This document shows, piece by piece, positions 28,639-54,530 of a stretch of 64,000 nucleotides of DNA. The notes beneath the pieces were generated by a model. It did not search any database. It was not told the origin of the DNA and saw nothing but the letters and a program-made list of their open reading frames with translations. Where the stretch lies: NCBI GenBank assembly GCA_049513255.1, contig JBEKWH010000006.1, positions 80,890-144,889 of the forward strand, read 5' to 3'. This DNA is from Solirubrobacteraceae bacterium (GTDB lineage: Bacteria > Actinomycetota > Thermoleophilia > Solirubrobacterales > Solirubrobacteraceae). Position 1 is the stretch's first letter; the number at the start of each line of letters is the position of its first letter. Both the position numbers and the translations under genes were made by a program.

Positions 28639-29541
28639 CTAGCTCGCGATCGCCGCGAACGCATCGAGCATCAACCCGCCGGCGGGGAGCACCTCGACGA
28701 TCTCGCCGCCGCGCTCGCGGGCCGCGGGGAGGCTGTCGGTGGCGTAGATGCGCCTCACTCCGAGCGCCGGCAGCTCGCGCCAGCGCTCGCCGGTGAAGAG
28801 CCCGTGGGTGACGAAGACGTCGATCTCCCGCGCGCCCGCCCGTCGCAGCGCGGCGCACGCCGAGACGAGCGTGCCACCGGTGTCGAGGATGTCGTCCACG
28901 ATCACGGCCCGCGATGAGATCGCGCCGGTGAGCGAGCTGTGCGCGACTCCGTTCGCGTCACGTCGCTTGTGCAGTCGAGCGAGCGCAGAGCCATTCATGC
29001 CCGCCGCGCGGATCACAGCTTCAGCTCTCTCCACTGCGCCGTCATCCGGCGCCACGACGCTGACGCCGGCCAGCCCGCGCCCGGTGAGTACCTCGGCGAA
29101 CAGCGCCGCCGGCGAGAGCGAGTCGAGCTGCATCGGAAAGCACGCCGCCGCCCGGCTGCTGTGCACATCGAGCGTCAGCACCCGATCGACGCCGCCGGCG
29201 CGCAGCAGATCGCCGGCCCAGGCGGCGCCCAGGCTCTGACCGTGCTCGGCCCGGTCCTGGCGCGCATAGCCCAGGTACGGCAGCAGCGCCACGACCTGCC
29301 GCGCACCCTCGCGCTTGAGCGTATGGGCCAGGGCCAGCACCGACAGGATCTGCTCGTCCGGTGGCGCCAGGGAGCCCCAGATCGCGCAGATCCGGCCCGC
29401 TGCCGGATCGCCGACGCGCACGTACAGCTCGCCATTGGCGAAGCGGTCGAGCTCGCAACTTCCCAGGACGGACGTTGAACGCTCGATCAGCTCGCCCGAC
29501 AGCAGCGGGCGGTACTGCGGGAGCGGGAAGATGATCGACAT
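28639..29541 (-). CDS. prs: Ribose-phosphate pyrophosphokinase (PRPP synthetase)
   Basis: FANGE, PYLGYARQDR, LDVHS, APDDG, VDDILDTGGT and THG motifs. Confidence 0.92.
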   Translation of the reverse strand: MSIIFPLPQYRPLLSGELIERSTSVLGSCELDRFANGELYVRVGDPAAGRICAIWGSLAPPDEQILSVLALAHTLKREGARQVVALLPYLGYARQDRAEHGQSLGAAWAGDLLRAGGVDRVLTLDVHSSRAAACFPMQLDSLSPAALFAEVLTGRGLAGVSVVAPDDGAVERAEAVIRAAGMNGSALARLHKRRDANGVAHSSLTGAISSRAVIVDDILDTGGTLVSACAALRRAGAREIDVFVTHGLFTGERWRELPALGVRRIYATDSLPAARERGGEIVEVLPAGGLMLDAFAAIAS

Positions 29542-35076: not shown

Positions 35077-37518
35077 CTACGCGCCGATCGAAGCGGCGGG
35101 CTCATCGGGTCCTCCGCGGTGGCCCCACTTGCGTGCGGACAGCGCCATCGCGGCCAGACGCTCCTGGACGCGGGCGTGCAGCGTTCCCGCTGGATAGGCG
35201 CCATCGGTCCCGCGCTCGCCGGCGGGCAGGCCCGTGAGGATCTCGATCCCCTGATCGATGCTGTCGACCGCCCAGATGTGAAAGCGACCGTCCCTGACCG
35301 CCGCCAGCACGGGCTCGTCGAGCATCAGGTGACGGCGGTTTGCGGCAGGGATGATCACGCCCTGCTCGCCCGTGAGCTCGGCGCGCTCACAGGCCGCGAA
35401 GAAGCCCTCGATCTTTTCCGTCACCCCGCCCACGGCCTGCACGCGGCCGTACTGGTCGACCGAGCCGGTGACCGCGATGCCCTGGTCGATGGGCGCGCCG
35501 GCGAGGCTCGAGAGCAGCGCGTGGAGCTCGCTGCTGGATGCCGAGTCGCCTTCCATGCCGGCATAGGACTGCTCGAAGGTCAAGCTCGCGGACAGCGACA
35601 GCGGCACGTCATCGCCGTAGCGCTGCTCTAGATAGCCGCGCAGCGTGAGGAACCCCTTGTCGTGGATCGGCCCGCTGAGCTTGCTCTCGCGGTCGATGCT
35701 CACCAGCTCGCCGCCGCCGGTCGCGGTCGTCGCTGTGATGCGCGCCGGGTGCCCGAAGGCGTAGTCGCCCAGCGCGACGACGGCCAGTCCGTTGACCTGG
35801 CCGACCGCGCTGCCGCACAGCTGGATGTGCAGCGTTCCTTCGTCGACCATCTCGGCCAGGCGCTGCTCGAGCAGGTCCGAGCGTGTGCGCCGCTCGCGGA
35901 TCGCCTGCTCGACGTGCTCGGCTGCCACCACCTTCGCCCCGGCTTGCGCGGCCCAGTGACTGGCCTCGGTGACGACGTCGGCGACCTCCTGGAAGCGCGT
36001 GGAGAGCTTGCCCTGGTGGGCGGCGCGGCGGGCACCGTCCTCGACCACGCGCGCGACCGCGCCGGCGTCGAAGTGCAGCAGCCCCTCGCGCGCGACCTGG
36101 GTGCTGATGAACGTGGCGTAGCCCGAGGACCCCTCATCGCTCCACGGCATCTGCGTGTCGAAGTCGGCCTTTACGCGGAACAGCTCGCGTACGTCCTCGT
36201 CGAGCGCGTGCATCAGCTCGTACAGCTCGCCCGAGCCGACGAGCACGACCTTCACCTCGACGGGGACGGGCTCCGGCGTGAGCGAGGCGGTCGGGAACAG
36301 CATGAACTGCTCGCCGAGGTTCTCGACCTGCGCGAGGCCGGAGCGCAGCACCTCCTTGAGCTTCTCCCAGGCGAACGGCTGGCGCAGCACGTCGGCGGCG
36401 CGCAGGATCAGGTAGCCGCCGCTCGCCGTGTGGATCGCGCCGGCCCTGATGTGGCGGTGGTCGGTGATCGCCGCACCGAGCGTCGTCTCGAACTCGATGC
36501 GCCCGAACAGACGCGGGTACGTCGGGTTGCGCTCCACCACCACCGGCGCACACTGCGCGTCGCTCGCCACGAACACGTTGACTTCGTAACGGGCCCGGAA
36601 CGCGTCCGCGCCCCGGCCGAGCACGATGCCGAGCGGCGCCGTGAGCTGGCTCTGCTCGGCACCGGCGAGAAAGCCGCCGTAGTTGTCGATCACATCCTCG
36701 CGAACACGCTCGAGCCAGCCGGCCACCGCCTCCACCCCACCGTGCTCGCGCTTGACGTCGTCGATCAGGTGCCCGACCGCGAACAGGACCACCTCCCTCT
36801 CCAGCGCGCGCACCCGCTCGCGTACGCGCGATTCGATCTCGCGCATCTGGGGGATCACGCCGACCATCCGCTGTTCGACCTCGTGGCTCGCGGCGTCGAG
36901 GTCCCGGCGTGTCTGCTCTGGCAGCCGCTCGAACTCCTGGGGCGTGACGGGCCGTCCGTGCACGAGCGGGATCGTGACCGCACCGGCCGGCGTGACCTCG
37001 AGATTCAGCCCGCGTGAGCGCGCGAACGTGCGCACCTGCTCGAGCAGCTCCTGGCGCTCGCGCTCGAACGGCTCGACGACCTCGCCCCGGCGGCGCTGGT
37101 AGCTCTCGCTCTCGAACGCGTGCGGGATCTCCGTGCCGGCCTGCTGAACGAAGGCGCTCATCGCCCGCTCGAGACGGCGCCCGTCGCCGGGTGCCAGCAA
37201 GGCGCACAACGGCTTGGTGGGCTCATCGAAGTTGAACAGGAACACAACGTCGCGTGAGGCTGGACGAGCGTCGGCGTGCGTGCGCACGCGCGCTTGCACC
37301 GTCTCGCGCTTGCCCGTGCCATCGGGGCCGGTCGCGAACACGTTGTATCCCCGCTGTGGCACCTCGACCGCGAAGTCGATCGCGCGCAGCGCCCGCTGCT
37401 GGCCGCTCGCGCCGTCCGCCGGCTCGATCTCGGCGGTCGTAGCGAACGGCAGCGCCGCAGGATCGCAAAACCGGCGCAGCTCCTGCGGCGCAAGCCTCAA
37501 GTCGACGCGCGAGCTCAC
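35077..37518 (-). CDS. Lon-like ATP-dependent serine protease (AAA_32 + Lon_C; LonC/LonB type)
   Basis: GQQRA, GPDGTGK, EGDSAS (catalytic Ser), AVTGSVDQ and GGVTEKIEGF (catalytic Lys). Confidence 0.93.
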   Translation of the reverse strand: MSSRVDLRLAPQELRRFCDPAALPFATTAEIEPADGASGQQRALRAIDFAVEVPQRGYNVFATGPDGTGKRETVQARVRTHADARPASRDVVFLFNFDEPTKPLCALLAPGDGRRLERAMSAFVQQAGTEIPHAFESESYQRRRGEVVEPFERERQELLEQVRTFARSRGLNLEVTPAGAVTIPLVHGRPVTPQEFERLPEQTRRDLDAASHEVEQRMVGVIPQMREIESRVRERVRALEREVVLFAVGHLIDDVKREHGGVEAVAGWLERVREDVIDNYGGFLAGAEQSQLTAPLGIVLGRGADAFRARYEVNVFVASDAQCAPVVVERNPTYPRLFGRIEFETTLGAAITDHRHIRAGAIHTASGGYLILRAADVLRQPFAWEKLKEVLRSGLAQVENLGEQFMLFPTASLTPEPVPVEVKVVLVGSGELYELMHALDEDVRELFRVKADFDTQMPWSDEGSSGYATFISTQVAREGLLHFDAGAVARVVEDGARRAAHQGKLSTRFQEVADVVTEASHWAAQAGAKVVAAEHVEQAIRERRTRSDLLEQRLAEMVDEGTLHIQLCGSAVGQVNGLAVVALGDYAFGHPARITATTATGGGELVSIDRESKLSGPIHDKGFLTLRGYLEQRYGDDVPLSLSASLTFEQSYAGMEGDSASSSELHALLSSLAGAPIDQGIAVTGSVDQYGRVQAVGGVTEKIEGFFAACERAELTGEQGVIIPAANRRHLMLDEPVLAAVRDGRFHIWAVDSIDQGIEILTGLPAGERGTDGAYPAGTLHARVQERLAAMALSARKWGHRGGPDEPAASIGA

Positions 37519-38187: not shown

Positions 38188-38841
38188 ATGCGCGTGCCAG
38201 TCCGATCCGAGCCAGACGCCTTCCGCTTGACCGTGGCCGGCGCGCTGGCGGTTGCGGTCGCGGTGCTGGTCGGCTGGCTCACCAAGCCGCTGGTTGGCGC
38301 AGCGGTGTTCGTGGTGGTGCTGATACTGGCCGCGATCGCCTACCTGCGCGCGGCCAACCCCGATCGCCGCACGCCGCTGCGCGAGGCGAGCGTCGCGGTG
38401 CATCCTCACGGCGCCGCGCCCGGCAAGCGCCATGTGCTGGTCGTCGCCAACGAGACGCTCTCAGGCGCGGCGCTGTGCGAGCGGATCCTCGGAGATGATC
38501 ACGAGCGCGTCGAGGTCGACGTCCTCGCCCCGGTGCTCACCTCGCGCCTGCATCAAGGAGTATCTGACATCGACCGCGAGCTCGAGCACGCCCGCGCGCG
38601 CCTGGAGCGCTCGCTGGCGTGGGCGCACGAGCAGGGCATCGTCGCCCGCGGCGAGGTCGGCGATCCCAGCGCGACGAGCGCGATCGAGGACGAGCTGCGC
38701 GACTTCGGCGCCGACGAGGTGATCGTCGTCACGCATCCGCGCGAGCGTGAGACCTGGCAGGAGCATGGAGAGCTGGAGCGTCTGCGGCGTGAGCTGGACA
38801 TACCTGTCACGCACGTAGTGGTCGGTGACGGCGGCTCGTAG
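38188..38841 (+). CDS. Membrane-anchored USP-like (adenine nucleotide alpha hydrolase fold) protein
   Basis: Two N-terminal TMs, then HVLVVANETL, GEVGDP and FGADEVIVVTHP. Confidence 0.75.
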   Translation: MRVPVRSEPDAFRLTVAGALAVAVAVLVGWLTKPLVGAAVFVVVLILAAIAYLRAANPDRRTPLREASVAVHPHGAAPGKRHVLVVANETLSGAALCERILGDDHERVEVDVLAPVLTSRLHQGVSDIDRELEHARARLERSLAWAHEQGIVARGEVGDPSATSAIEDELRDFGADEVIVVTHPRERETWQEHGELERLRRELDIPVTHVVVGDGGS

Positions 38842-38859: not shown

Positions 38860-39597
38860 ATGCCGCCGTCGAGCAACCAACGGTCGGGCCTGACAGCGGC
38901 CGCCCGCGGCCCACGGTGGCTGGCGGCGCTGGTCGTCCTGACTGCGGTGATCGCGAGTGGACCGGCGGCGTCGCCGGCTCTCGCGAGCAGGCCGCGCGCG
39001 GCGGTCGCCGCCCCTACCGGGCGCCAGGCCGCGGCGAACCTGAGCCTCGGCTCGCACGGGCCGGCGGTGCGCACGCTGCAGAGCGCGCTCGCACGCTTGA
39101 CGTATCTGCCCTCCGACGGCGTCGACGGGGTCTTCGGCGAACGGACCTGGCACGCGGTGGTCGCGTTTCAGGGGTGGAGCGGGCTGGTGCGCGACGGCGT
39201 GGCGGGCCCGCTCACGCAGCGGGCGCTCGCGCACGCGCGGCGGCCGGTGCCGTGGTCCACAGCCACAGGGTTCGAGGTCCACATCGCTCAGCAGGTGCTG
39301 CTGCTCGTGCGCGACGGGCGGGTGCAGCGCGCGATTCACGTCTCGACCGGGCGCCCGGGCTGGCCGACGCCGGTCGGGCACTTCACGATCCTGGAACGCG
39401 ATCTGATGAGCTGGTCGGCGCCGTTCCAGGTGTGGATGCCGCTTGCGCAGTACTTCTACGACGGCTTTGCCCTGCATGAGTTCTCCGAAGTGCCCGACTA
39501 CCCCGCCTCGCACGGGTGCATCCGCGTGCCCGAAGTGGAAGCGCCGACCGTGTGGCAGTTCGGGCGTGTCGGGATGCGCCTGTGGACAAGCCCTTGA
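38860..39597 (+). CDS. L,D-transpeptidase with peptidoglycan-binding domain
   Basis: PG_binding_1 pattern LQSAL..L.Y..DG.FG..T..AV.AFQ and YkuD motif ALH...PASHGCIRV. Confidence 0.92.
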   Translation: MPPSSNQRSGLTAAARGPRWLAALVVLTAVIASGPAASPALASRPRAAVAAPTGRQAAANLSLGSHGPAVRTLQSALARLTYLPSDGVDGVFGERTWHAVVAFQGWSGLVRDGVAGPLTQRALAHARRPVPWSTATGFEVHIAQQVLLLVRDGRVQRAIHVSTGRPGWPTPVGHFTILERDLMSWSAPFQVWMPLAQYFYDGFALHEFSEVPDYPASHGCIRVPEVEAPTVWQFGRVGMRLWTSP

Positions 39598-39632
39598 GCT
39601 GGAGGCGCCAGGCCGCGACGATCACGGGCAAC

Positions 39633-41468
39633 GTGCACCCTTCGACGCTCCCCGTGCCGGCGCCCGCGTCTCAGCGCCTCAAGGACGCGAGCCGGGCTGC
39701 GCGCGGATTGGCGGCGCGTGTCGCGCGCGGGCTGTGCGTGCGCGTGCCGGGGACCGCGGCGGGTCTCGCCGCGGCGATCCCCGTGATCAACTCGACGATC
39801 AAAGCCGCACATGCGGGATGGGTGCCGGCGGGGGACGACGGGATCATCGCCACGCGCGGCTGGGACGTGCTCACCTCGCACACGCCGCTGGTCGGCCAGT
39901 ACTCCGAGGCCGGCCTGGTGATCCGCGGGCAGGTCATGCACAGCCCCGGTCCGATGCTGTACTGGCTGATCGCGCTGCCGGCGCGCTTCGGCAGCGTCAC
40001 GAGCATCGCGGTGACGATGGGCATCGTCAACACGCTGGCGATCATCGGCTGCGTCGCGCTCGCGCGCCGCCGCGGCGGCCTGGTCCTGATGTTCGCGACG
40101 GCGGCCGGGATCGCGCTGATGTGCCAGTCGCTGCCGACCGAGGCGATGCACGACATCTGGAACCCGGCGGCCGGCCTGTTCGGATTCCTGCTGCTGATCT
40201 TCCTCGGCTGGTCGCTCGCCTGCGGTGAACACCGCCTGCTGCCGATCACGGTGTTCGTCGCGAGCTTCGTCACGCAGACCCACCTGATGTACGCGGCGCC
40301 GACCGCGGTGCTGCTCGCGGTCGGCTTCGGCGGGCTCTTGATCGGGTCGCTTAGGCGCCGCCGCGTACGCGCCGCCGGCCGCGGGCCGCACTCGCAGCCG
40401 CAGCCGCAGCCGCAGCCGCCAAGGAGGATCTGGCCGTGGGCGCTGGCGGCGCTCGTGGTGGCCGGCGCGTGCTGGACCGAGCCGGCGATCGATCAGATCG
40501 AGAACAGCCCTGGGAACCTCTCGATGATCGTGCGCACCGCGGAGCACCGCGGGCCGACGCTCGGCGCGACGGCTGGTTGGCACGCGGTGGTCCGCTCGAT
40601 CGGGGTGCGGCCGTGGTGGCTGTACGTGCCCGCGTCGGAGTGGGAGCGCAAGGCGGACGTTCGCGCCACGCCGAGCAGCCGCGCCCTCGATTCGACGATC
40701 GCGCTGCTCGCGGCGCTGGCGCTGGCCGGGCTGATCGGCGCCGTCCGGCGACGGTGGGATCTCACCGCGGCGACGCTGATCGGCCTGGGGCTGTGTGCGG
40801 CGATCGGCGTCGAGGCGGCCTCCAACCCGTCGACGAGACTGCTTGCGGAAACTCTCGGCTACACGATGTGGTGGGGCTCAGAGCTGGGCCTGTGGGTGTG
40901 GCTGATGCTCGCGTGGGCGCTGTGGCTCGGGCTCATCGGCATGTCGCGCCCGCCGCTGCGGGCGCTGCGCCGCCGCATCCGCGGCGACCGCGGGGCGCTG
41001 CCCGCATGGGTGCGACCGGCTGCGGTCGTGCTCGCCTCGCTGGCGAGCATTGGCGGAGTGGCCGCTGTGGGCAGCGCGGTCGCGGCGACCGCGAAGCCGG
41101 ACTCCCACGTGTACGAGTACCGGCCGATCCGCGCGGTTGCGGCGGGCATCGAGCGCCTGATCGAACCAGGCCGGTCGATCGAATATCGCCTCGGACCGCT
41201 CGACGTCGGCACGCAGCCGATGGAGCCCGCGATCCGCTTCCTGCTCGTCCGCCACGGAGACCGCGTCCTGGCGGAGGGCTCGTACCCGCGACTCGGCTCC
41301 TACTACGAGCTGTATCACCGTCCGGTGCAGTGGACCGTGTACCTCCGCGACGGCACCCGGCGCCAGCCGCACATGACGCTCGCGGCGCGCGTCCGCTTCA
41401 CCGACCCCTGGGGCACGGACGTGCTCAGCGCGTGGGTGGCCCGCGCGAGGCGCGCACGGGCTCCGTAA
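39633..41468 (+). CDS. Multi-pass membrane protein (GT-C/ArnT-like topology); start uncertain
   Basis: GDDG..A acidic loop after TM1, HSPGPMLYWL and WNP motifs, many TMs, and an internal (QP)4 repeat. Confidence 0.65.
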   Translation: MHPSTLPVPAPASQRLKDASRAARGLAARVARGLCVRVPGTAAGLAAAIPVINSTIKAAHAGWVPAGDDGIIATRGWDVLTSHTPLVGQYSEAGLVIRGQVMHSPGPMLYWLIALPARFGSVTSIAVTMGIVNTLAIIGCVALARRRGGLVLMFATAAGIALMCQSLPTEAMHDIWNPAAGLFGFLLLIFLGWSLACGEHRLLPITVFVASFVTQTHLMYAAPTAVLLAVGFGGLLIGSLRRRRVRAAGRGPHSQPQPQPQPPRRIWPWALAALVVAGACWTEPAIDQIENSPGNLSMIVRTAEHRGPTLGATAGWHAVVRSIGVRPWWLYVPASEWERKADVRATPSSRALDSTIALLAALALAGLIGAVRRRWDLTAATLIGLGLCAAIGVEAASNPSTRLLAETLGYTMWWGSELGLWVWLMLAWALWLGLIGMSRPPLRALRRRIRGDRGALPAWVRPAAVVLASLASIGGVAAVGSAVAATAKPDSHVYEYRPIRAVAAGIERLIEPGRSIEYRLGPLDVGTQPMEPAIRFLLVRHGDRVLAEGSYPRLGSYYELYHRPVQWTVYLRDGTRRQPHMTLAARVRFTDPWGTDVLSAWVARARRARAP

Positions 41469-41498
41469 AAGACCGCAATGCGCGTGGTAGCTACCGCC
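41462..41498. promoter_or_regulatory. Two putative 16-bp regulator sites upstream of the acsA-pdh-ATPase operon
   Basis: TCCGTAAAAGACCGCA (41462) and CGTGGTAGCTACCGCC (41483). Confidence 0.5.
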
Positions 41499-41559
41499 GA
41501 TGCGGGCGCTTCGGCTGATGCCCTACGGTTCGGACGTGTCCTCCACGGGTGAGAGAGCC

Positions 41560-43359
41560 GTGACCCAAGCTCGGGGATCCGGGCATGCGGATGCGAGCTC
41601 GCACGCGCAGGGCGTTCCGCCGAACATGGTGGACTACGACGAGGCTCGCTCGACGTTCTCGTGGACGGCGGCGCGAGCGGAGCTCGCGGGCCTGCCCGGC
41701 GGCGGCTTGAACATCGCGCACGAGGCCGTCGACCGCCACGCGGATGGGCCGCTGGCAGACACGACCGCGTTGCGCTGCCTCGGCAGGCACGGGGGCGCGC
41801 GCGAGATCACCTACGCGGAGCTGCGACGCGAGACCGCCCGCTTCGCGAACGTGCTGGAGACGCTCGGCGTGCAGCGCGGGGAGCGCGTGTTCGTCCTCAG
41901 CGGGCGGATCCTCGAGCTGTATGTGGCCGCGCTGGGGACGCTCAAGCACGGCAGCGTGTTCTCGCCGCTGTTCTCGGCGTTCGGGCCCGAGCCGATCGAG
42001 CAGCGCCTGGCGCTCGGCGACGCGCGCGCGCTGATCACGACGCCGGCGCTGTACAAGCGCAAGGTCGCGCAGCTGCGCGAGCGCCTGCCACAGCTCGCGC
42101 ACGTGCTGCTGGTGGGAGACGAGGCGGAGATCGCGGCGATCCCGGACGTGCAGGACTTCAAGCGGCTGATGGGCGCGGCCGGGGACACGTACGAGATCGC
42201 CGTGACGGCTCCGGAGGACATGGCGCTGCTGCACTTCACCAGCGGCACGACCGGGACGCCGAAGGGGGCGGTGCACGTGCACGAGGCGGTCGTGGCGCAT
42301 CGTGCGACCGGGCGCACCGTGCTCGATCTGCGCCCCGGCGACGTGTTCTGGTGCACCGCCGATCCGGGCTGGGTGACCGGCACCTCCTACGGGATCATCG
42401 CCCCGCTGACGCTGGGCGTCACGAGCGTCATCGACGAGGCCGACTTCGACGCCGACCGCTGGTACACGATCCTCCAGGAGCAGCGGGTGAGCGTGTGGTA
42501 CACGGCGCCGACGGCGTTGCGGATGCTGATGCGCATCGGCGCCGAGGTCGCCCGCGAGTACGACCTCAGCTCGTTGCGCTTCATCGCGAGCGTCGGCGAG
42601 CCGCTGAACCCCGAGGTGGTCCTGTGGGGCGAGGAGGCGTTCGGCATGCCGATCCACGACAACTGGTGGCAGACGGAGACCGGCGGGATCATGGTCGCCA
42701 ACTACCGCTCGATGGACGTGCGGCCAGGGTCGATGGGCCGCCCGCTGCCGGGGATCGAGGCGGCGGTGGCGCGACGCGACGCCGAAGGCCGGCCGGTGCT
42801 CGCCGATGACGGTGGCCTCGAGCTGGTGCGCGCGCCGGAGGAGCAGGGCGAGCTGGTGCTGCGTCCGGGCTGGCCGTCGATGTTCCGCGGCTACCTCGGC
42901 GAGCAGGAGCGCTACGAGCGCTGCTTCGCCGGCGGCTGGTATCTGAGTGGCGACCTCGTGCGACGCGACGCCGACGGCTACTTCTGGTTCGTCGGGCGCG
43001 GCGATGACGTGATCAAGTCGGCGGGACACCTGATCGGCCCGTTCGAGGTGGAGAGCGCGCTGCTCGCCCACCATGCCGTCGCCGAAGCGGGCGTGATCGG
43101 CAAGCCCGATCCGGTGGCCGGGGAAATCGTCAAGGCGTTCGTCGCGCTGGCCCCGGGCCAAGAGCCGGGCGAGGAGTTGCGCAAAGAGCTGCTGGGCTTC
43201 GCGCGCCAGCGGCTCGGCGCGGCGGTCGCGCCGCGCGAGATCGACTTCGTCGCGAGCGTGCCGCGCAATCGCTCCGGCAAGATCATGCGCCGGCTGCTGA
43301 AGGCGCGCGAGCTCGGCCTGCCCGAGGGCGACGTCTCGACGCTGGAGCCGGACGCATGA
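41560..43359 (+). CDS. acsA: Acetate/acyl--CoA ligase (acetyl-CoA synthetase-like)
   Basis: [37 protein letters not shown] and RSGKIMRR motifs. Confidence 0.93.
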
Positions 43360-44369
43360 GCGCCGAGGAGCCGCTGCAGCGCGACCACGGACTGCACCTG
43401 CTGCATCAGATGCTGCGCGTGCGCCGCTTCGAGGAGAAGTGCGTGGAGCTGTACAGCGCGGCCAAGATCCGCGGCTTCATGCACCTGTACATCGGCGAGG
43501 AGGCTGTGGCCGCGGGCGTGATGGAGGCTCTGGGGCCCGAGGACGCGATCGTGGCGACCTACCGCGAGCACGGCCACGCGCTCGTGCGCGGGGTGTCCGC
43601 GGGCGCGATCATGGCGGAGATGTACGGCAAGGTCGAGGGCTGCTCGCGTGGACGCGGCGGGTCGATGCACCTGTTCGACGCGGCCACGCGCTTCTACGGC
43701 GGCAACGCGATCGTCGGCGGCGGGCTGCCGCTGGCGCTCGGCCTGGCGCTGGCGGACAAGCTGCAGGGGCGCGAGCGCGTGACCGCGTGCTTCTTCGGCG
43801 ACGGCGCGGTCGCCGAGGGCGAGTTCCACGAGTCGATGAACCTCGCCGCCCTGTGGCGGCTGCCGGTGCTGTTCTGCTGCGAGAACAACCTCTACGCGAT
43901 GGGCACCGCGATCGAGCGCTACGAGTCCGAGACCGAGCTCGCCCTGAAGGCCGCGAGCTACGAGATGCCCGCGTGGAGCGTCGACGGGATGGACGTGGTC
44001 GCGGTCGAGCACGCCGCGCGCAAGGCCGCGGCCGAGGTCCGCGGCGGGATGCCGTGCTTCCTGGAGCTGCGGACCTACCGCTTCCGCGCGCACTCGATGT
44101 ACGACCCGGACCTGTACCGCTCCAAGGATGAGATCGAGCACTGGAAGGAGCACGACCCGATCGCCGTGCTGACCAGGGCTCTGCAGGAGGGCGACATGCT
44201 CAGCGACGACGATCTGGCCGGGCTGGAGCGCGCGGTCGCGCAGGAGGTCGAGGACGCGATCGCCTTCGCGGAGTCGGGCACGCTGGAGCCGGTGGAGGAC
44301 CTGGAGCGGTTCGTTTACTGGGAGCCCGCCCACTCGGAGCCCGCCCACCCCGAGCCGGCCCGGGCATGA
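43356..44369 (+). CDS. pdhA: Pyruvate/2-oxoacid dehydrogenase E1 alpha
   Basis: TYREHG, GRGGSMH, the ThDP motif GDGA...ENN, and YRFRAHS. Confidence 0.95.
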
Positions 44370-45364
44370 GCAGCCCGGCGGCGGTCACGCTGACCTATCG
44401 CGAGGCCATGCGCCAGGCGATCCGCGAGGCGCTGCTGGGCGACGAGCGGGTGTTCCTGATGGGCGAGGACGTCGGCGCCTACGGCGGCTGCTTCGGCGTC
44501 TCCAAAGGCCTGCTCGAGGAGTTCGGGCCCGAGCGCATCCGCGACACGCCGCTGTCTGAGTCGGCGTTCGTCGGCGCGGGGATCGGCGCCGCGATGGGCG
44601 GCATGCGCCCGATCGTCGAGGTGATGACCGTCAACTTCTGCCTGCTGGCGCTCGACCAGATCATGAACAACGCCGCCACGATCACGCACATGTCCGGCGG
44701 CCAGTTCTCGATCCCGCTGGTGATCCGCATGACGACCGGCGCCGGGCGCCAGGTCGCCGCCCAGCATTCCCACAGCCTCGAGGGCTGGCTCGCCCACATC
44801 CCCGGGCTGCGGCTGCTGACCCCGGCGACACTCGCCGACGCCCGCGGGATGCTCGCGCCGTCGCTGCAGGATCCCAACCCCGTGCTGATCTTCGAGCACG
44901 GTGGGCTCTACAACCTGGAGGGCGAGCTGCCCGCCGACGCGGGCGCCGTCGACATCGAGCGCGCCGCCATCCGCCGCGCCGGCGCCGACGTGACGCTGAT
45001 CGCCTACGGGGGGACGCTGGCGACCGCGATGGACGCCGCCGATGCGCTCGCCGGGGCCGGCATCGAGGCCGAGGTGATCGACCTGCGGGTGCTGCGCCCG
45101 CTCGACGACGCGACGGTGATCGAGTCGCTTGCGAGGACCCACCGGGCAGTGATCGTCGATGAGGGCTGGCGCTCGGGCAGCCTCGCCGCGGAGGTCAGCG
45201 CGCGAATCATGGAGCAGGCCTTCTACGAGCTCGACGCCCCTGTCGCCCGCGTCTGCTCGGCGGAGGTCCCGATGCCATACGCCCAGCATCTCGAGCAGGC
45301 GGCGCTGCCGCAGGCGAGCACCGTCGTCGCCGAGGTCCAGCGGATGGTGGGCGCCGGTGGCTGA
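44366..45364 (+). CDS. pdhB: Pyruvate/2-oxoacid dehydrogenase E1 beta
   Basis: MGEDVG.YGG, DTPLSE, AAQHSHS and DLRVLRPLD motifs. Confidence 0.95.
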
Positions 45365-46616
45365 TTTCCTGATGCCCTCGCTGGGAGCCGACATGACCTC
45401 CGGCACCCTGCTCGAATGGCGCGTGAAGCCCGGCGATGAGGTCAAGCGCGGTGACATCGTCGCGGTCGTCGACACGAGCAAGGCCGAGATCGAAGTCGAG
45501 ATCTTCGAGGACGGCGTGATCGACGAGCTGCTCGTCCCCGAGGGCACCCGCGTGCCCGTCGGAACGCCGCTCGCGACCGTCCGCGCCGGCGCAGAGCAGG
45601 AGGCGCCGCCCGCACCGCCCGTACCGCCCGCGCCCGCGCGGCACGTCGCCGTGCCCGCGTCGCCGCAGCCGCTCGAGGAGCACCGTCTACGGGCCTCGCC
45701 GCTGGCGCGGCGCGTGGCCGAACAGCTCGGCGTCGACCTGGCGACGGTCGCGGGCAGCGGACAGGCCGGGGCGATCACCAGGACCGACGTGGAACACGCC
45801 GCGGCGGGTGCCGTCACGCCGGCCCCGCCGGCGCCGGCGGCTGCACCCTCGCCTGCTGCGTCTGCACCGGCGGCACCCGCTCCGGCCGCGAGCGGCGCGC
45901 TCGCCCCCCCACCCACGCCACCGGCCCCACCAACCGGGGAGCCCGGCGACCGTGCGCTGGCGATGCGCCAGGCGATCGGGGCGCTGATGGCGCGCTCGAA
46001 GCGAGAGATACCGCACTACTACCTGCAGACTCAGATCGACATGAGCGGAGCGCTCGCGTGGCTGGCGGAGCAGAACCTCGAGCGACCGATCGCCGAGCGC
46101 CTGCTGCCATCGGCGCTGCTGCTGAGCGCGGCGGCCAAGGCGGCCGCCGCGACGCCGGCGCTGAACGGCTTCTGGGTCGACGAGGCGTTTCGCCCGTCCG
46201 AGGCTGTCCACCTCGGCGTGGCGATCTCGCTGCGCGGCGGCGGCCTGGTCGCGCCGGCGCTGCACGACGCCGACCGCAGCAGCCTCGACGAGCTGATGGC
46301 CGGCCTGCGCGACCTCGTGACGCGGGCTCGAGCGGGCAGGCTGCGCGGCTCGGAGATGTCCGATCCGACGATCACCGTGACGAACCTGGGCGAGCAGGGA
46401 GTCGAACTGGTGCACGGCGTGATCTACCCGCCGCAGGTGGCGCTGGTCGGCTTCGGTGCCGTGCTGGAGCGACCGTGGGCCGTGGACGGGATGCTCGGCG
46501 CGCGGCCGATCGTGACCGCGACGCTCGCGGCCGACCATCGCGCGAGCGACGGCCACGCCGGAGGCCGCTTTCTCACCCTGATAGACCGCCTACTGCAGAA
46601 ACCGGAGGAGCTATGA
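45357..46616 (+). CDS. pdhC: Dihydrolipoamide acyltransferase E2
   Basis: Lipoyl domain DTSKAE, E3-binding domain [15 protein letters not shown], and catalytic DHRASDG. Confidence 0.94.
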
Positions 46617-46879
46617 ACGAGCAGGAGCTGCGCGACGTCGTGATCCGGGCGTTGACCGAGGTCGCACCAGATATCGACCCGGCCGCGATCGATCCCGCGG
46701 CCGATCTGGCCGAGCAGCTGGACATCGACTCGATCGACTTCCTCAACGTGCTCGTCAACGTGCACGAGCAGACGGGGATCGAGATTCCCGAGCGCGACTA
46801 CCCGAAGCTCTCCACGCTCGACGACGCGGTCGCCTATCTCCTCGCTGCACAGCCGCGAGGCGCCGGCACGGACGCGTAA
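46613..46879 (+). CDS. Acyl carrier protein
   Basis: Not a separate track ORF; ATG at 46613 overlaps the pdhC stop. Phosphopantetheine site LDIDSIDF and GIEIPERDY motif. Confidence 0.92.
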   Translation: MNEQELRDVVIRALTEVAPDIDPAAIDPAADLAEQLDIDSIDFLNVLVNVHEQTGIEIPERDYPKLSTLDDAVAYLLAAQPRGAGTDA

Positions 46880-46890
46880 CCTCCCTGCCG

Positions 46891-47319
46891 ATGACACCCC
46901 TGGCCGAGCTCCTCGACCGGCTGCGACGCCGCCGCCAGCCGCCCGGGCGCGCGGCTGCGGCGGTGGGTGTGCCCGCGGTCGAGCCCGACGTCGCCGCGGA
47001 GCTGGCGCCCCTGTTCGGCCGGCTCGACGAGATCGACGCCGAAGCGGCCGCGATCGTGCAGGCAGCCCGGTCGCAGGCGGCGGCGATCGAGCGCGACGGG
47101 CAGCGAGAGGCCGAGCGAATCCTGGAGCTGGCGAGGAGCGAGGCAGGGCTCGAAGCGGATCGCGTGCGCCGGGAGCGGCGCGAGGCGGCCGAGCTCCAGG
47201 CGCGGGCGATCCTCGCGAACGCCCGCTCCGAGGCGACGCGCCTGCGCGAGCGGGCCGCGCAGCGCGCGCCGAGCGTCGTCGAGGACGTGCTGGGGCTGCT
47301 CGTACGGGGGGCCGGTTGA
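46891..47319 (+). CDS. A/V-type ATPase peripheral stalk subunit G/H-like
   Basis: Long Ala/Glu/Arg coiled coil; first gene of the ATPase run. Confidence 0.6.
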   Translation: MTPLAELLDRLRRRRQPPGRAAAAVGVPAVEPDVAAELAPLFGRLDEIDAEAAAIVQAARSQAAAIERDGQREAERILELARSEAGLEADRVRRERREAAELQARAILANARSEATRLRERAAQRAPSVVEDVLGLLVRGAG

Positions 47320-48228
47320 GCGCCGAGTGGATCGCGGGCACGGTGCGCGGCAGGCTGCTGCTCGAACGCCGCCTGGGCGAGGAGCCCGCTCGCACGCTGG
47401 CCGCGCAGAGCTCCCTCGCCGCGGCCCAGCGCCTGCTGCTGGCAAGCGCTTACGGCCGTGACGTCGGCGCTGCGCAGGAGCTCGCTCCCGCGCAGCGCGC
47501 CGTCGCCGCGACCGCGCTGTGGCATCTGCGCATCTTCGCCGGCTGGCTGCCGCCGGACGGCGCCGTGCTGCTGCGTGCGCTCGCCGCCTGGTACGAGCTG
47601 GTCAACATCGAGCACCACATCGCCTGGATCGTCACGGGGGCCAGCCCACCGCCGCCGTTCGAGCTCGGCGGCCTCGCCACCGTCTGGCCCCGCGTCGAGC
47701 CGACGCGCAGCGCGGCCGAAGTCCGCGCGGCGCTCGCAGCGTCGCCCTGGGGAGAGCCGGCCAGCGAAGAGCCGCTCGCACTGCATCTGGCGCTGCGCGC
47801 CGGTTGGGCGCGGCGCGTCATCGACCATGCGGGTGCGGCGAGCGAGTGGGCGCGGGCGGCGGTTGCGCTGCTGGTGGCGCGCGAGCTGCTGCTGGGCGAC
47901 GGCGAGGACCAGCGGCGCCTGCTGGCGCTGCCGGGGGTGAGCGCGAGCTGGCTGTCGGCGTCGAGCGTGCCCGAGCTTGCCGCGCGCCTGCCCGCGAGGA
48001 TCGGCTGGGTGTTGCGCGAGGTGGAGCGGCCCGAGCAGCTGTGGCGTGCCGAACTGGACTGGTGGCGGCGCGTCGAGGACGACGCGCAGGCGCTGATGCG
48101 AAGCCCGGTCGGGTCGCCCGCGCTGGTCGTCGGGACGGTCGCGCTGCTCATGGCCGACGCGCGGCGAGCGGGTCAGGCGCTGGCGATCGCGGCGCTCGGC
48201 GGCAGCCAACGAATGCGAGAGCGCGCGG

Positions 48229-48242
<14 letters not shown>
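47316..48242 (+). CDS. A/V-type ATPase subunit C (d)-like, divergent
   Basis: Size, position and helical content; YELVNI resembles the subunit C ..N(I/L) motif. Confidence 0.6.
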
Positions 48243-50265
<2,023 letters not shown>

Positions 50266-50269
<4 letters not shown>

Positions 50270-50808
50270 GACGCTCCCCCCACCGGCGGGCAGCCGCGAC
50301 GCGCCGGCCCGCGGAGGTCGATCGCTGGGCGCCGGTTCGCAGCACGACACTGGCCGACGCCCACGCGGAGGCCGAACGACTCCGCGCCCAGGCAGGGGAG
50401 CGTGGAGCGGCCGCGCTCGCCGCGGCCCACGCGCGCGCTCGGGAGCTGCACGAGGACTCGATCGCGGCGGCCCGCCGCGCTGCCGACGACGACGCCCGGC
50501 GGGTGCTCTCGGCCGCGCGCAAAAGCGCACACGAGCTGCTGCTGTCGGCGCGCCGGGAGGTCTACGCCGGCGTCGCCCGTGACGTCGCCCAGCAGGCGTC
50601 GAGCCGCCGCGCGGACTACCAGGCGGTGACCGAACGGCTGATCGGCGACGCGCGGCGACGCCTGGGGGCGGACGTGCAGATCACCGACGCGCCGGACGGC
50701 GGGATCATCGCCCACGCTCCGGGACGTCAGATCGACTACTCGCTCTCGACCCAGGTCGGGCGCTGTCTGGCCGAGCTGGACGACGAGGTGGCGGCGTTGT
50801 GGAGTTGA
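50266..50808 (+). CDS. A/V-type ATPase subunit E-like
   Basis: N-terminal coiled coil followed by DGGIIA..GRQIDYSL; lies between F and A. Confidence 0.75.
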
Positions 50809-52526
50809 GCAGCGGCACGGTCACCCGCGTGAACGGGCCGATTGTCGAGGTCGCGGGACTGGGCGGGCTCGGCGTCGCTGAACTCGTGACCGTCGGACCG
50901 CGCCGGCTGGCGGGTGAGGTGCTGTCGCTGGCGGGCGAGACCGCGACCGTGCAGGTCTACGAGGAGACCTCCGGGCTGCGCCCGCGCGAGGCGGTGCTGG
51001 CGAGCGGGCATCCGCTCAGCGCCGAGCTCGGTCCCGGCCTGCTCGGCGGCGTGTTCGACGGCATGCTCCGGCGCCTGCAGGACGCCGGCCCGTGGCTGGA
51101 GCCGGGCGTCCTCACCGGGGCGCTCGATCCCGACCGGCGCTGGCGCTTCACTCCGAGCGTTCGCGCCGGCGATGACGTGGAGGCCGGCCAAGTCCTCGGC
51201 ACGGTGCCCGAGACCGGCGCGATCACCTACCGCGCGCTCGTCCCGCACGACCTCGCCGGCAGAGTCGAGACGATCCTCGACGAGGGCGAGGTCACGGTCG
51301 GCGAGACGATCGCGACCGTCGCCGGGCACGCGATCACGCTGGCCCACACATGGCCGGTGCGCCGCCCGCGGCCGGCCGCCGGGCGCCTGTCCTCCGGCCG
51401 GCCGCTGGTCACCGGGCAGCGCGCCGTCGACCTGCTGTTCCCGCTCTGCCAGGGCAGCACCGCGGGCGTGCCCGGCGGGTTCGGCACGGGCAAGACGCTG
51501 CTGCTGCAGCAGATCGCGAAGTGGTGCGACGCCGACGTGATCGTGTATGTCGGCTGCGGCGAGCGCGGCAACGAGCTCGCGGAGCTGCTCGAGGACTTCG
51601 CCGAGCTCGAGGACCCGCGCAGCGGCCAGCGGCTGATGGAGCGCACGGTCACGATCGTCAACACCTCCAACATGCCGCTGCTGGCGCGCGAGGCGAGCAT
51701 CTACACGGGTGTCACGGTCGCCGAGCACTACCGCGACATGGGCTACGACACCGTCGTGATCGCCGACTCGACCTCCCGCTGGGCCGAGGCGCTGCGCGAG
51801 TCGGCGGCACGCACCGAGGAGCTGCCCGCCGAGGAGGGCTATCCGCCGGAGCTGTCCTCGACGCTGGCCGCCTTCTACGAGCGCGCCGGGCGCTTTCAGA
51901 CGCTGACCGGCGCGCAGGCGTCGGTCACGATCCTCGGCGCGGTCTCTCCCCCCGGCGGTGACCTGGCCGAGCCGGTCACGGCGCACACGCGGCGGTTCGT
52001 GCGGGCCGTCTGGTCGCTCGACCGCCAGCTCGCCTATGCGCGCCATCACCCGGCGATCAGCTGGACCGACTCCTCCTCGCGCGACGCCGAAGCGATCGCG
52101 GCCTTCAAGGCCGCCGAGGGGGATGACGACTGGGCACAGCGCCGGCGCGAAGCCCTGCAGCTGCTGATGGACGCCGACCGGATCGAGTCGGTCGCCCAGC
52201 TGACCGGCGTCGAGAGCCTGCCCGGCCCGGAGCGCGTGACGCTCATCTCCGCGCGGCTGCTGCGCGAGGGTGTGCTGCAGCAGAGCGCGCTGAGCCTCAA
52301 CGATCGCTACTGCGCCACCGCCAAGCAGGGGGCGCTGCTCGCGCTGGTGCTCGACATCCAGCGAGCGCTGCTCGCGTCGGCAGATGGGGGCACCGCGATC
52401 GAGCGCATCGAAGCGCTCGACCTCTCCGACGTCGCGCGCATCCGCGACGAGTGCCCCGCCGACGACGTCGATGCGGTCGCGCGGCTGGGCGCCGAGATCC
52501 AGAGCCGAATCGCACGGCTGCGATGA
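50799..52526 (+). CDS. atpA: A/V-type ATPase catalytic subunit A
   Basis: VYEETSGL, Walker A GGFGTGKT, CGERGNE, DSTSRWAEALRE and PAEEGYP motifs. Confidence 0.97.
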   Translation: MELSSGTVTRVNGPIVEVAGLGGLGVAELVTVGPRRLAGEVLSLAGETATVQVYEETSGLRPREAVLASGHPLSAELGPGLLGGVFDGMLRRLQDAGPWLEPGVLTGALDPDRRWRFTPSVRAGDDVEAGQVLGTVPETGAITYRALVPHDLAGRVETILDEGEVTVGETIATVAGHAITLAHTWPVRRPRPAAGRLSSGRPLVTGQRAVDLLFPLCQGSTAGVPGGFGTGKTLLLQQIAKWCDADVIVYVGCGERGNELAELLEDFAELEDPRSGQRLMERTVTIVNTSNMPLLAREASIYTGVTVAEHYRDMGYDTVVIADSTSRWAEALRESAARTEELPAEEGYPPELSSTLAAFYERAGRFQTLTGAQASVTILGAVSPPGGDLAEPVTAHTRRFVRAVWSLDRQLAYARHHPAISWTDSSSRDAEAIAAFKAAEGDDDWAQRRREALQLLMDADRIESVAQLTGVESLPGPERVTLISARLLREGVLQQSALSLNDRYCATAKQGALLALVLDIQRALLASADGGTAIERIEALDLSDVARIRDECPADDVDAVARLGAEIQSRIARLR

Positions 52527-53935
52527 CAGCGGCGCGCGTGCCGATCGAGTACAGCTCGACGGCCTCGATTCGCGGTCCGTTGATCGTCGTCGAGGGCGTG
52601 CAGGACGTCGGCTGGAACGAGGTGGCCGAGATCCGGCTGGCCGGCGGCGAGGTGCGCCACGGCGTCGTCCTGGACGTCTCCCTCGACCACGCGATCGTCG
52701 AGGTGCTCGAGGGCACGGCCGGCATGCGCCTTGATGGGGTGCGCACCGCCTTCGGCGGTGCCCCGATGAGCGTGCCGATCACCGAGGAGTGGCTCGGCCG
52801 GGTGTGTGACGGTCGCGGAGAGCCGCTCGACGGAGGCCCCCCGATCCTCGGCAGTCACCGCCGCGAGATCAACGGCACGCCGATCAACCCCGCCGTGCGC
52901 ATCCCGCCCAGCGAGCCGATCATCACCGGTGTCAGCGCGATCGACGGGCTCGCGACGCTCGTGCGGGGCCAGAAGCTGCCGATCTTCTCGGTGGGCGGTC
53001 TTCCACACCTGGAGCTCGCCGCCCAGATCGCCGTGCAGGCGAACGTGGCGGGCGAGCCGTTCGCGGTCGTGTTCGCGGCGCTCGGGGTGACCCACGCGGA
53101 CGCGGCCTCGCTGCGGGAGACGCTCGAGACGCGCGCCGGCGAGCGGGAGACGGTGATGTTCATCAACACCGCCGAGGACCCGGTCGTCGAGCGCGTGATG
53201 ACGCCGCGCCTGGCGCTGACCGTCGCCGAGCACCTCGCGTTCGAGTGCGACCGGCACGTGCTGGTGCTGCTCGCTGACATGACCAACTACGCCGAGGCGG
53301 TGCGCCAGGTGTCGGCCGCCCGCGGGGAGGTGCCCACGCGGCGCGGCTACCCGGGCTACCTGTACAGCGACCTCGCCTCGCTGTACGAGCGCGCCGGTCG
53401 CATGCGCGGCCGCCGCGGCTCGGTGACGCTCGTGCCGGTGCTGACGATGCCCGCCGGCGACATCACGCATCCCGTGCCGGATCTGACCGGCTACATCACC
53501 GAGGGCCAGCTCGTGCTCGCAGCCGACCTGCACGCCCGCGGCGTGTACCCGCCGCTGGATCTGATGGGGTCGCTGTCGCGCCTGATGCGCAGAGGCGCCG
53601 GCGCGCAGCTGACGCGCGAGGATCATCTCGAGCTGTCCGACCAGCTGTACTCGCTGATGGCCCGAGCGCTGCAGGCGGCCGACCTCGCGGAGATCGTCGG
53701 CGCCGATGCGCTGCCCGCCGCCGACCAGCGCCTGCTGGCGTTTCGCACGGCGCTCGAGCGCGAGTTCCTCAGCCAGGGCCAGCAGGAGGCGCGCACCGTG
53801 GAGGCGACGCTCGACCTCGGCTGGCAGGTGGCCTCGCGCCTGCCTGCGTCGGAGCTGACGATGGTCAGCCGCCAGACCCTCGCCGCACGCTACCGAGGGG
53901 AGGAGACCGATGCCGAGCACGGGCACGTCGGGTAA
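52523..53935 (+). CDS. atpB: A/V-type ATPase subunit B
   Basis: RGQKLPIFS, DMTNYAEA, RGYPGYLYSDL, DITHPVPDLTGYITEGQ and SLSRLM motifs. Confidence 0.97.
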   Translation: MTAARVPIEYSSTASIRGPLIVVEGVQDVGWNEVAEIRLAGGEVRHGVVLDVSLDHAIVEVLEGTAGMRLDGVRTAFGGAPMSVPITEEWLGRVCDGRGEPLDGGPPILGSHRREINGTPINPAVRIPPSEPIITGVSAIDGLATLVRGQKLPIFSVGGLPHLELAAQIAVQANVAGEPFAVVFAALGVTHADAASLRETLETRAGERETVMFINTAEDPVVERVMTPRLALTVAEHLAFECDRHVLVLLADMTNYAEAVRQVSAARGEVPTRRGYPGYLYSDLASLYERAGRMRGRRGSVTLVPVLTMPAGDITHPVPDLTGYITEGQLVLAADLHARGVYPPLDLMGSLSRLMRRGAGAQLTREDHLELSDQLYSLMARALQAADLAEIVGADALPAADQRLLAFRTALEREFLSQGQQEARTVEATLDLGWQVASRLPASELTMVSRQTLAARYRGEETDAEHGHVG

Positions 53936-54530
53936 GGCGGCGCGGCTCGTGCTGCGTCAGCGGCTCGCCGTCGCGCGCCGCGGCGCCGACCTGCTCTCAC
54001 GCAAGCGCCAGGCGCTGCTGGCCGAGCAGCGCCGGCTGCGCGACGCAGCCACTGCGGCCGCCGGCGAGTGGGCGCAGGCGATCGCCGAGGCCGAGCGCTG
54101 GCTCGCCCGCTCGGCCCTGCTCGACGACGCCGGCGAGATCGCGCGAATCGCCTCCTATGCGCAGCACGCGCCGGAGCTGACGGTCGCCTGGGAGCCGCTG
54201 ATGGGCATCGTCCGGCCGCGCATCGCCGTCCTCGAGCAGGGCCCGGCGCCGCCGATCTCCTCGCTCGGCGGAAGCTCGGCTCTGCACTACGCAGCGCTCG
54301 CCTACCGGCGCGCGACCCGGGCGGCCGCCGCGCAGGCCGCCGCGCAGATCGCGCTCGAACAGGTCTCGCACGAGCTCGCCACCGTCGCCCGCCGCGCACG
54401 CGCGATCGAGCGACGCCTGATCCCCCGCCAGGAGGCCGAGCTGGCCACGCTCGAACTCAGCCTCGAGGAGAGCGAACGCGAGGAGGCCGCCCGCCTGCGC
54501 CTGCTGACCCGCCGCCGCGGCCAGCCCTGA
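53910..54530 (+). CDS. atpD: A/V-type ATPase subunit D
   Basis: ARRGADLLSRKR and RRARAIERRLIP...LEESERE motifs. Confidence 0.9.
   Translation: MPSTGTSGKAARLVLRQRLAVARRGADLLSRKRQALLAEQRRLRDAATAAAGEWAQAIAEAERWLARSALLDDAGEIARIASYAQHAPELTVAWEPLMGIVRPRIAVLEQGPAPPISSLGGSSALHYAALAYRRATRAAAAQAAAQIALEQVSHELATVARRARAIERRLIPRQEAELATLELSLEESEREEAARLRLLTRRRGQP

Follow-up and report, generated by a model that had tools for sequence, protein, structure and literature searches.

A five-gene cassette that combines a pyruvate dehydrogenase (PDH)-like complex with an acetate-coenzyme A (CoA) ligase and a dedicated acyl carrier protein (ACP) was identified in a 64,000-nucleotide (nt) window of a Solirubrobacteraceae genome (GenBank assembly GCA_049513255.1, contig JBEKWH010000006.1, positions 80,890 to 144,889 of the forward strand). 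The cassette occupies positions 41560-46879 of the window, on the + strand, and is a genuine, tightly coupled five-gene unit. Its gene order, acs-E1 alpha-E1 beta-E2-ACP, is complete and in the same orientation in 45 of the 53 related loci with enough upstream sequence, and the arrangement is therefore not a product of chance. Our leading interpretation, to which we give slightly less than an even chance, is that of a conserved, horizontally mobile accessory PDH/AcsA module for low oxygen or stress, which would carry its acetyl group on a private ACP.

The PDH complex is among the best-studied enzyme machines, and its textbook acetyl acceptor is free CoA. The cassette is a version of this machine that has no dihydrolipoamide dehydrogenase (E3) of its own, bears an ACP and a ligase, and appears to have been passed horizontally into the stress or low-oxygen islands of soil bacteria from many phyla. 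If our interpretation is correct, it would point to a so far overlooked use of acetyl groups, and perhaps a source of ATP, in aerobic bacteria deprived of oxygen. Were the ACP to be only an accessory, the cassette would still define a new paralogous PDH subfamily, well delimited and useful for annotation.

Organization and distribution of the cassette

An earlier reading of the window, made from the sequence alone, had assigned E1 alpha, E1 beta and E2, together with an adenylating ligase and an ACP, to this interval. All five genes were borne out, with the following coordinates and lengths in amino acids (aa):

41560..43359, + strand: acsA, AcsA-type (short, Bacillus-type) acetate-CoA ligase, about 599 aa; GTG start, in frame with the open reading frame (ORF) from 41500
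43356..44369, + strand: pdhA-like E1 alpha, binding thiamine diphosphate (ThDP), 337 aa; PF00676, E 4e-84; TIGR03182, 449 bits
44366..45364, + strand: pdhB-like E1 beta, 332 aa; Transket_pyr and Transketolase_C; NF006667, 399 bits
45372..46616, + strand: E2 dihydrolipoyl acetyltransferase, 414 aa; Biotin_lipoyl, E3_binding and 2-oxoacid_dh
46613..46879, + strand: dedicated ACP, 88 aa; PF00550, 31.7 bits (cut-off 20.8)

The GC content of the window is about 71%, and the host genome is 4.35 Mb in size and 94.5% complete. Three of the four junctions (acs/E1 alpha, E1 alpha/E1 beta and E2/ACP) are 4-nt overlaps of a start with a stop codon, the ATG of the ACP gene overlapping the TGA of the E2 gene as ATGA; the remaining gap, between E1 beta and E2, is 7 nt. 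Scans of positions 41000-47400 found neither a terminator-like site nor a sigma-70 promoter.

Scanning species-representative genomes for the ACP yielded 73 loci, onto which the proteins of the window were mapped. Two of the 53 loci counted above, L030 and L071, appeared complete apart from frameshifts or divergence. At least six phyla carry the cassette (Actinomycetota, Deinococcota, Planctomycetota, Proteobacteria, Acidobacteriota and Myxococcota), the carriers in the genome scan including Solirubrobacterales, Acidimicrobiia, Nitriliruptoraceae, Trueperaceae, Thermomicrobiales, Planctomycetota, Alphaproteobacteria (Tistlia and Hyphomicrobium), Acidobacteriota and Nannocystaceae. Cultured carriers were found by tblastn against plasmids, namely Sinorhizobium fredii, Rhodococcus sp. 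DK17, Azospirillum oryzae, Cupriavidus, Ralstonia, Burkholderia and Paraburkholderia phymatum. The copy of S. fredii CCBAU 45436 (L093) lies on the conjugative plasmid pSF45436d and the Rhodococcus copy (L094) on pDK1; the depositors had annotated the genes of both as acsA, pdhA, beta subunit, acetyltransferase and acyl carrier protein. Close orthologues of the ACP were present in 2 of a further 24 genomes from this genus; an even sample of 400 Actinomycetota genomes contained 6 with one, the genome of the window not being counted. This patchy distribution fits horizontal transfer of a mobile cassette.

A full-text literature search, with incomplete coverage of the literature, found no published description of the cassette, and the protein accessions and locus tags of the Sinorhizobium and Rhodococcus copies were likewise absent from the papers covered. 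The plasmid copies reside in cultured, genetically tractable strains (Rhodococcus sp. DK17, S. fredii, P. phymatum, Cupriavidus and Azospirillum), which makes the function of the cassette directly testable.

Decayed copies were also seen. L026, L075 and L082 carry internal deletions or frameshifts in acs, E1 or E2; L026 and L075 retain a whole ACP, whereas that of L082 is truncated. The decayed copy L026 is still adjoined by a V-ATPase operon.

The E1 and E2 components and the source of E3

The E1 alpha exceeds the cut-off of 394 bits for TIGR03182 (PDH_E1_alph_y), and the E1 beta the cut-off of 321 bits for NF006667. In a maximum-likelihood tree of E1 beta, six cassette sequences formed a clade with 100/100 support, which nested at 99/99 with housekeeping PDH E1 betas and apart from other paralogues. 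The cassette E1 betas of five distant carrier genomes were 68-73% identical to that of the window, and the next-best paralogue in each of these genomes reached at most 50%. Tree position and identities support pyruvate as the probable substrate, and the E1 beta data support the horizontal spread of one distinct paralogue.

The E2 contains a lipoyl domain with Lys37, a peripheral subunit-binding domain (PSBD) and a catalytic domain with a DHRASDG motif. The sequence-only reading had described the lipoyl lysine and the catalytic histidine as intact; Lys37 indeed lies within DTSKAE, and the catalytic motif is present in full. The lysine is conserved in 51 of 51 loci, a PSBD match was obtained in 50, and D197, H198, R199 and G203 are invariant in the alignment of orthologues. 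The retention of both PSBD and lipoyl lysine argues that the complex would still run the lipoyl cycle and dock peripheral subunits. The solved structures closest to the E2 are mitochondrial E2p cores. As a whole protein, it scores below every NCBIfam E2 cut-off, the best being TIGR01349 with 230 bits against 445.

Such divergence of the E2 could indicate a substrate other than pyruvate, for example acetoin, another 2-oxo acid or a ketose, as for QncN, with a different acyl unit passed to the ACP or to CoA. Paralogues may pass equivalog cut-offs after a change of function, and AcsA adjoins acetoin-utilisation genes in Bacillus. We consider this very unlikely for the present cassette. Its E1 alpha passes TIGR03182, which we take to be a model of one PDH clade kept apart from acetoin and branched-chain E1s, and its E1 beta groups with housekeeping PDH and away from the other paralogues of the same genomes. 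The nearest solved E2s are pyruvate-specific, and the partner ligase is acetate-specific by family, matching a C2 product.

Of the features expected of a PDH complex, the cassette has an E1 pair that belongs to the PDH clade and an E2 bearing the lipoyl lysine, PSBD and DHRxxDG. The likeness is to PDHs with a heterotetrameric E1 (mitochondrial, alphaproteobacterial or the Gram-positive pdhA-pdhB-pdhC-lpd type): the E1s pass PDH cut-offs and nest in the PDH clade, and the E2 has the same domain set, with lipoyl lysine and DHRxxDG intact and mitochondrial E2p as its nearest structures. The cassette differs from these PDHs in lacking an E3 gene in or near the operon (71 loci), in having a dedicated ACP coupled to the E2 and a leading AcsA gene, and in being a separate paralogue alongside a housekeeping operon, with an E2 below all curated E2 cut-offs. 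It also differs in its setting, a stress or low-oxygen island, and in its patchy distribution, which fits horizontal transfer.

The housekeeping operon lies on contig C22 in the order E3-E1 alpha-E1 beta-E2, with E3 at its head and lipA a few kb away. The cassette proteins are 45% (E1 alpha), 53% (E1 beta) and 31% (E2) identical to their counterparts there. Because of this second operon, the PDH of the window is additional to the housekeeping complex, and the genome can provide E3 and the lipoylation machinery in trans. No E3 is encoded in the window, and the C22 gene is the sole match above the TIGR01350 cut-off in the genome; the only BPL_LplA_LipB match is on contig C1. With the genome's own E3 as query, none of 71 related loci had an E3 within 10 kb of the ACP, so that the absence of a local E3 is a family trait and not an accident of this window.

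These results agree with the sequence-only reading in that neither a dihydrolipoamide dehydrogenase nor a lipoate ligase occurs in the window, and the genome search for lpdA that it had proposed returned one true E3, inside the separate C22 operon. Its further suggestion, of a module that may make or use acetyl-ACP, possibly from acetate, instead of acting as a housekeeping PDH, stands in part. The separate operon on C22 and the distinct E1 beta clade uphold the contrast with a housekeeping PDH, and the formation of acetyl-ACP is putative. Dependence on E3, supplied in trans, remains likely, since E3 and lipoylation genes exist elsewhere in the genome and a PSBD is retained by the E2 of 50 loci.

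The private ACP, the ligase and the fate of the acetyl group

The ACP contains the sequence DIDSIDFLN and belongs to the PP-binding family (PF00550) by score, with D39-S40 invariant in 53 orthologues. D42, L44 and the segment P59-E-R-D-Y63 are invariant in the same set. The invariant Ser40 and the family-specific PERDY argue that the ACP is a genuine carrier and has a surface for a specific partner. Relatives of the ACP numbered 588 at E<=1e-5 in a protein collection, and its closest solved relatives are AcpM and the mitochondrial ACPs, which are structural subunits of complex I. The genome contains one gene of the phosphopantetheinyl transferase (PPTase) family. The acpP of fatty acid synthesis is a different gene, located in a fabD-fabH-fabG-acpP-fabF cluster on contig C8 and 37% identical to the cassette ACP by tblastn. 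The cassette ACP does not belong with the housekeeping AcpPs: it lies outside the fab cluster and scores below all NCBIfam ACP cut-offs, those for AcpP included (best NF002147, 42 bits against 84). The dedicated ACP proposed from sequence was thereby confirmed as distinct from the C8 gene. In most related loci, the alignment to E2 stops precisely where the ACP begins.

In the pathway that we propose, E1 alpha/beta would decarboxylate pyruvate and reductively acetylate the lipoyl-Lys37 of the cassette E2. The E2 catalytic domain would then hand the acetyl group to the 4'-phosphopantetheine thiol of the co-translated private holo-ACP, possibly alongside CoA, and the dihydrolipoyl arm would be re-oxidised by the one E3 of the genome, recruited from the housekeeping operon via the conserved PSBD. 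The AcsA-type ligase would link the resulting acetyl-thioester pool to free acetate. It may charge the pool from acetate and ATP or, when respiration fails, run backwards, converting acetyl-thioester, AMP and pyrophosphate (PPi) to acetate and ATP. Transcription of the module together with an A/V-ATPase, as appears to be the case here, would fit a role in keeping energy and membrane potential at low oxygen.

The contact between E2 and ACP that this pathway predicts was modelled by co-folding the ACP with a trimer of the E2 catalytic domain, all supplied as alignments. The ipSAE was 0.37, compared with 0.15 for the best control, and the verdict of the tool was 'weak support'; the runs agreed in at least 91% of contacts, with a partner pLDDT of at least 80. 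In calibration, 58 of 80 solved complexes attained the mark, as did 2 of 110 mismatched pairs; at a score of 0.60 or below it was attained by only 7 of the 80 solved complexes and by both mismatches. The model may be taken as a slight nudge toward an E2-ACP contact.

Fusions of E2 and ACP were seen in two proteins, each on a single contig, P0126 (300 aa) and P0127 (490 aa). Both contain a 2-oxoacid_dh domain, and P0127 also contains lipoyl and PSBD domains. They were set aside as evidence, as two singletons that could be frameshift artefacts.

The ligase contains AMP-binding and AMP-binding_C domains, and scored 909 bits against NF003313 'acetate--CoA ligase', above the equivalog cut-off of 729. 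Its best solved match, over the full length, is the AcsA chain 9g79_B (E 1.9e-167), at an identity of about 57% as estimated by counting from the alignment. It also carries the WWQTETGG sequence typical of ACS enzymes and a C-terminal SGKIMRR with the catalytic/regulatory lysine. The sequence-only reading was right to call the gene product an adenylating ligase; its generic label of acyl-CoA ligase gives way to that of an AcsA-type acetate-CoA ligase. The closest parallel is the AcsA of Bacillus subtilis with its AcuA/Pat-type lysine acetyltransferase. The full-length alignment to 9g79_B and the retained SGKIMRR lysine are shared features, as is the Pat-like GNAT protein acetyltransferase gene that adjoins acs in 12 related cassette loci. 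The difference is that the cassette acsA leads an operon with PDH E1/E2 and ACP genes, and that homologue queries from the other loci found no GNAT gene beside acs in this window.

The Arg191/Arg194 loop of Salmonella Acs, whose residues presumably bind CoA, was considered as a marker of CoA or ACP use. The segment is missing in the cassette ligase and equally in 9g79_B, a short AcsA that uses CoA, and it was discarded as non-diagnostic. Among the sequence features considered, none was found that decides between the ACP-acetylating and the CoA-only readings.

Several points weigh against the private carrier. The E2 looks like an ordinary mitochondrial-type E2p, and the ligase is an AcsA equivalog that shares an estimated 57% or so of its residues with a solved AcsA known to use CoA. 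Together with the frequent Pat-like lysine acetyltransferase, the ligase fits an ordinary acetyl-CoA synthetase, with no sign of ACP use. Acylation of the ACP is a putative step. Support from co-folding at the level obtained is, by the calibration of the tool, more often wrong than right unless the guess is already likely. The two E2-ACP fusions are singletons that a one-base error at the ATGA overlap could produce. The partner of the ACP need not be the E2, since in L054 and L069 the ACP follows acs and a Pat-like GNAT without E1 or E2. Finally, a reverse-AcsA route to ATP is not required, because the genome has an acetate kinase (C9, 44298-45251, - strand) above the family cut-off.

L054 (8238-10004, + strand) and L069 come from two metagenome-assembled genomes of Actinomycetes. 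In both, a 588-aa protein replaces E1 and E2 between acs and ACP, with ATGA coupling. The protein has no Pfam match; over its C-terminal 280 aa, it shares 45% identity with the Pat-like GNAT that other loci encode upstream of acs.

The main rival reading is that of an ordinary accessory PDH and AcsA, both making acetyl-CoA, with the ACP either bound as a regulatory or structural subunit, in the manner of mitochondrial ACP, or acting as octanoyl donor for E2 lipoylation. We rate this as unlikely, though a serious contender. It is favoured by an AcsA that passes its equivalog cut-off and stands close to a solved CoA-using enzyme, by E1 alpha and E1 beta that pass PDH cut-offs, and by an E2 that has all three canonical domains including the PSBD. 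The nearest solved relatives of the ACP, the structural mitochondrial ACPs of complex I and AcpM, also speak for it. Lipoylation by LipB draws on an acyl-ACP donor, and a search of the genome gave a single gene of the BPL/LipB family. The invariant serine, the PERDY segment and the strict coupling to the E2 catalytic domain, by contrast, suggest that the ACP is a catalytic carrier and no passive subunit. Among the recurrent neighbour clusters there is neither a LYR-like nor a lipoylation gene, and the acpP of fatty acid synthesis is already available to supply octanoyl-ACP.

A stronger form of the private-carrier interpretation concerns the direction of flux. Here the ACP would replace CoA as acetyl acceptor, and AcsA would run in reverse on acetyl-ACP, AMP and PPi to give ATP and acetate. 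The cassette would then form a CoA-insulated pyruvate-to-acetate unit of substrate-level phosphorylation, fuelling the co-transcribed A/V-ATPase and holding the membrane potential in anoxia. We regard this form as very unlikely. A phosphotransacetylase (Pta; PF01515, PTA_PTB family) was not found in the 94.5%-complete genome. The combination of AckA presence and Pta absence was put aside as too indirect to bear on the direction of AcsA.

To our knowledge, the only described precedent for transfer from an E2 to an ACP is offered by the QncN/QncL/QncM system of quinocarcin biosynthesis and the SclQ1-4 system of scleric acid biosynthesis, to the former of which the sequence-only reading had likened the cassette. 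In these glycolyl-ACP cassettes, a lipoyl acyltransferase of E2 type loads a C2 unit onto an ACP (PMC6335953). Their E1 parts are transketolase/PDH hybrids acting on ketose phosphates, and in QncL a pyrimidine-binding part is fused to an E2-like part (PMC6335953). The functional outline of the analogy holds, as both kinds of system combine an E1-type ThDP enzyme, a lipoyl acyltransferase and a stand-alone ACP. Membership of the same family does not. The Qnc and Scl systems are embedded in nonribosomal peptide synthetase (NRPS) clusters and are without AcsA, whereas the cassette has AcsA, and no NRPS or polyketide synthase (PKS) was found among the window genes scanned or the recurrent neighbours; its E1 alpha and E1 beta are separate proteins of the PDH clade, in place of a transketolase-like E1, and its E2 is free-standing, with a PSBD and no fusion to an E1 part.

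The similar parts list (ThDP E1, lipoyl acyltransferase and stand-alone ACP; PMC6335953) could also be read as that of a QncN/QncL/QncM- or SclQ1-4-type loader, supplying C2-ACP to an NRPS or PKS. We find this extremely improbable, and the reading was rejected. Neither NRPS nor PKS, ketosynthase (KS) or condensation domains were found in the scanned window genes or the sampled neighbour clusters, and the genes around the cassette are of stress and energy types. Its E1 belongs to the PDH clade and is not a transketolase hybrid, and the E2, with its PSBD, is unfused. The same form of the cassette recurs in at least six phyla, unlike a module of a biosynthetic cluster.

Stress and energy genes around the cassette

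All ORFs of the related loci were clustered, and the recurrent clusters were named. The recurrent neighbours of the cassette were as follows:

V-ATPase subunits: 11-13 loci per subunit cluster; at least two subunits within 10 kb of the ACP in 14 of 71 loci
Pat-like GNAT protein acetyltransferase adjoining acs: 12 loci
Phosphoribosyltransferase (PRTase): 10 loci
Universal stress proteins (USPs): 10 loci
LuxR-type response regulators (DosR-like): 8 loci
LonC-like protease: 7 loci
P-type cation ATPase: 7 loci
M50-CBS protease: 6 loci
GAF/PAS histidine kinases: 5 loci

The Rhodococcus copy (L094) is accompanied by a GAF kinase/regulator pair, a USP, pfkB, ppsA and GNAT genes, and the Sinorhizobium copy (L093) by a USP, Hsp20, a nicotinate PRTase, FtsH and BON proteins. 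Such neighbours resemble members of the DosR dormancy regulon of Mycobacterium tuberculosis, and by this analogy the cassette may serve at low oxygen. The USPs, GAF kinase/LuxR pairs, pfkB, PRTases, P-type ATPase, M50-CBS protease, Hsp20 and nicotinate PRTase are likewise reminiscent of the lxa locus of Burkholderia cenocepacia. The lxa locus carries an acetate module of its own, consisting of acetate kinase (ackA) and phosphotransacetylase (pta) (PMC3721108). It differs from the cassette loci in that its paper lists ackA and pta and no such cassette, and mentions neither an acyl carrier protein nor a pyruvate dehydrogenase (PMC3721108).

The present window shares only part of this setting. 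Its recurrent neighbours are limited to a LonC gene, a PRTase-hydrolase gene and the A/V-ATPase, and it differs from the low-oxygen islands in that queries from the other loci detected no homologue of the USP, response-regulator, kinase, P-type ATPase or M50-CBS genes within it. A DosR-box-like palindrome, GGGNCNNNNGNCCC, had a single match in the window, where chance alone would give 3.1, and this match is far from acs. It gives no evidence on regulation, and the lack of such a site near acs is a point against the low-oxygen part of the interpretation. The neighbours found in the window were:

46891..54530, + strand: A/V-type ATPase genes, operon complete (I, K, A, B, D and small subunits); V_ATPase_I, ATP-synt_C, ATP-synt_ab (twice) and ATP-synt_D
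35077-37518, - strand: LonC/LonB-like AAA protease; AAA_32, LonB_AAA-LID and Lon_C; homologues adjoin the cassette in 7 loci
24535-25911, - strand: phosphoribosyltransferase fused to a hydrolase-like domain; homologues in 10 cassette loci

The A/V-ATPase operon begins 11 nt past the stop codon of the ACP, with no terminator-like site up to position 47400. It is probably co-transcribed with the cassette, and we regard it as context outside the five-gene core. The 14 loci with at least two V-ATPase subunits near the ACP belong to Solirubrobacterales and Acidimicrobiia, and vary in the order and orientation of these genes.

The PRTase-hydrolase gene is adjoined by a gene for a xanthine-dehydrogenase-type molybdoenzyme with 2Fe-2S domains (25996-28629, - strand), next to which lies a phosphoribosyl pyrophosphate (PRPP)-synthetase-like gene (28639-29541, - strand). 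Just upstream of acs, two genes on the + strand, 39516-41468 (650 aa) and 38188-38841 (217 aa), show good coding GC3 and have no Pfam or NCBIfam match. They are kept beside the cassette only in its closest relatives, L019 and L022.

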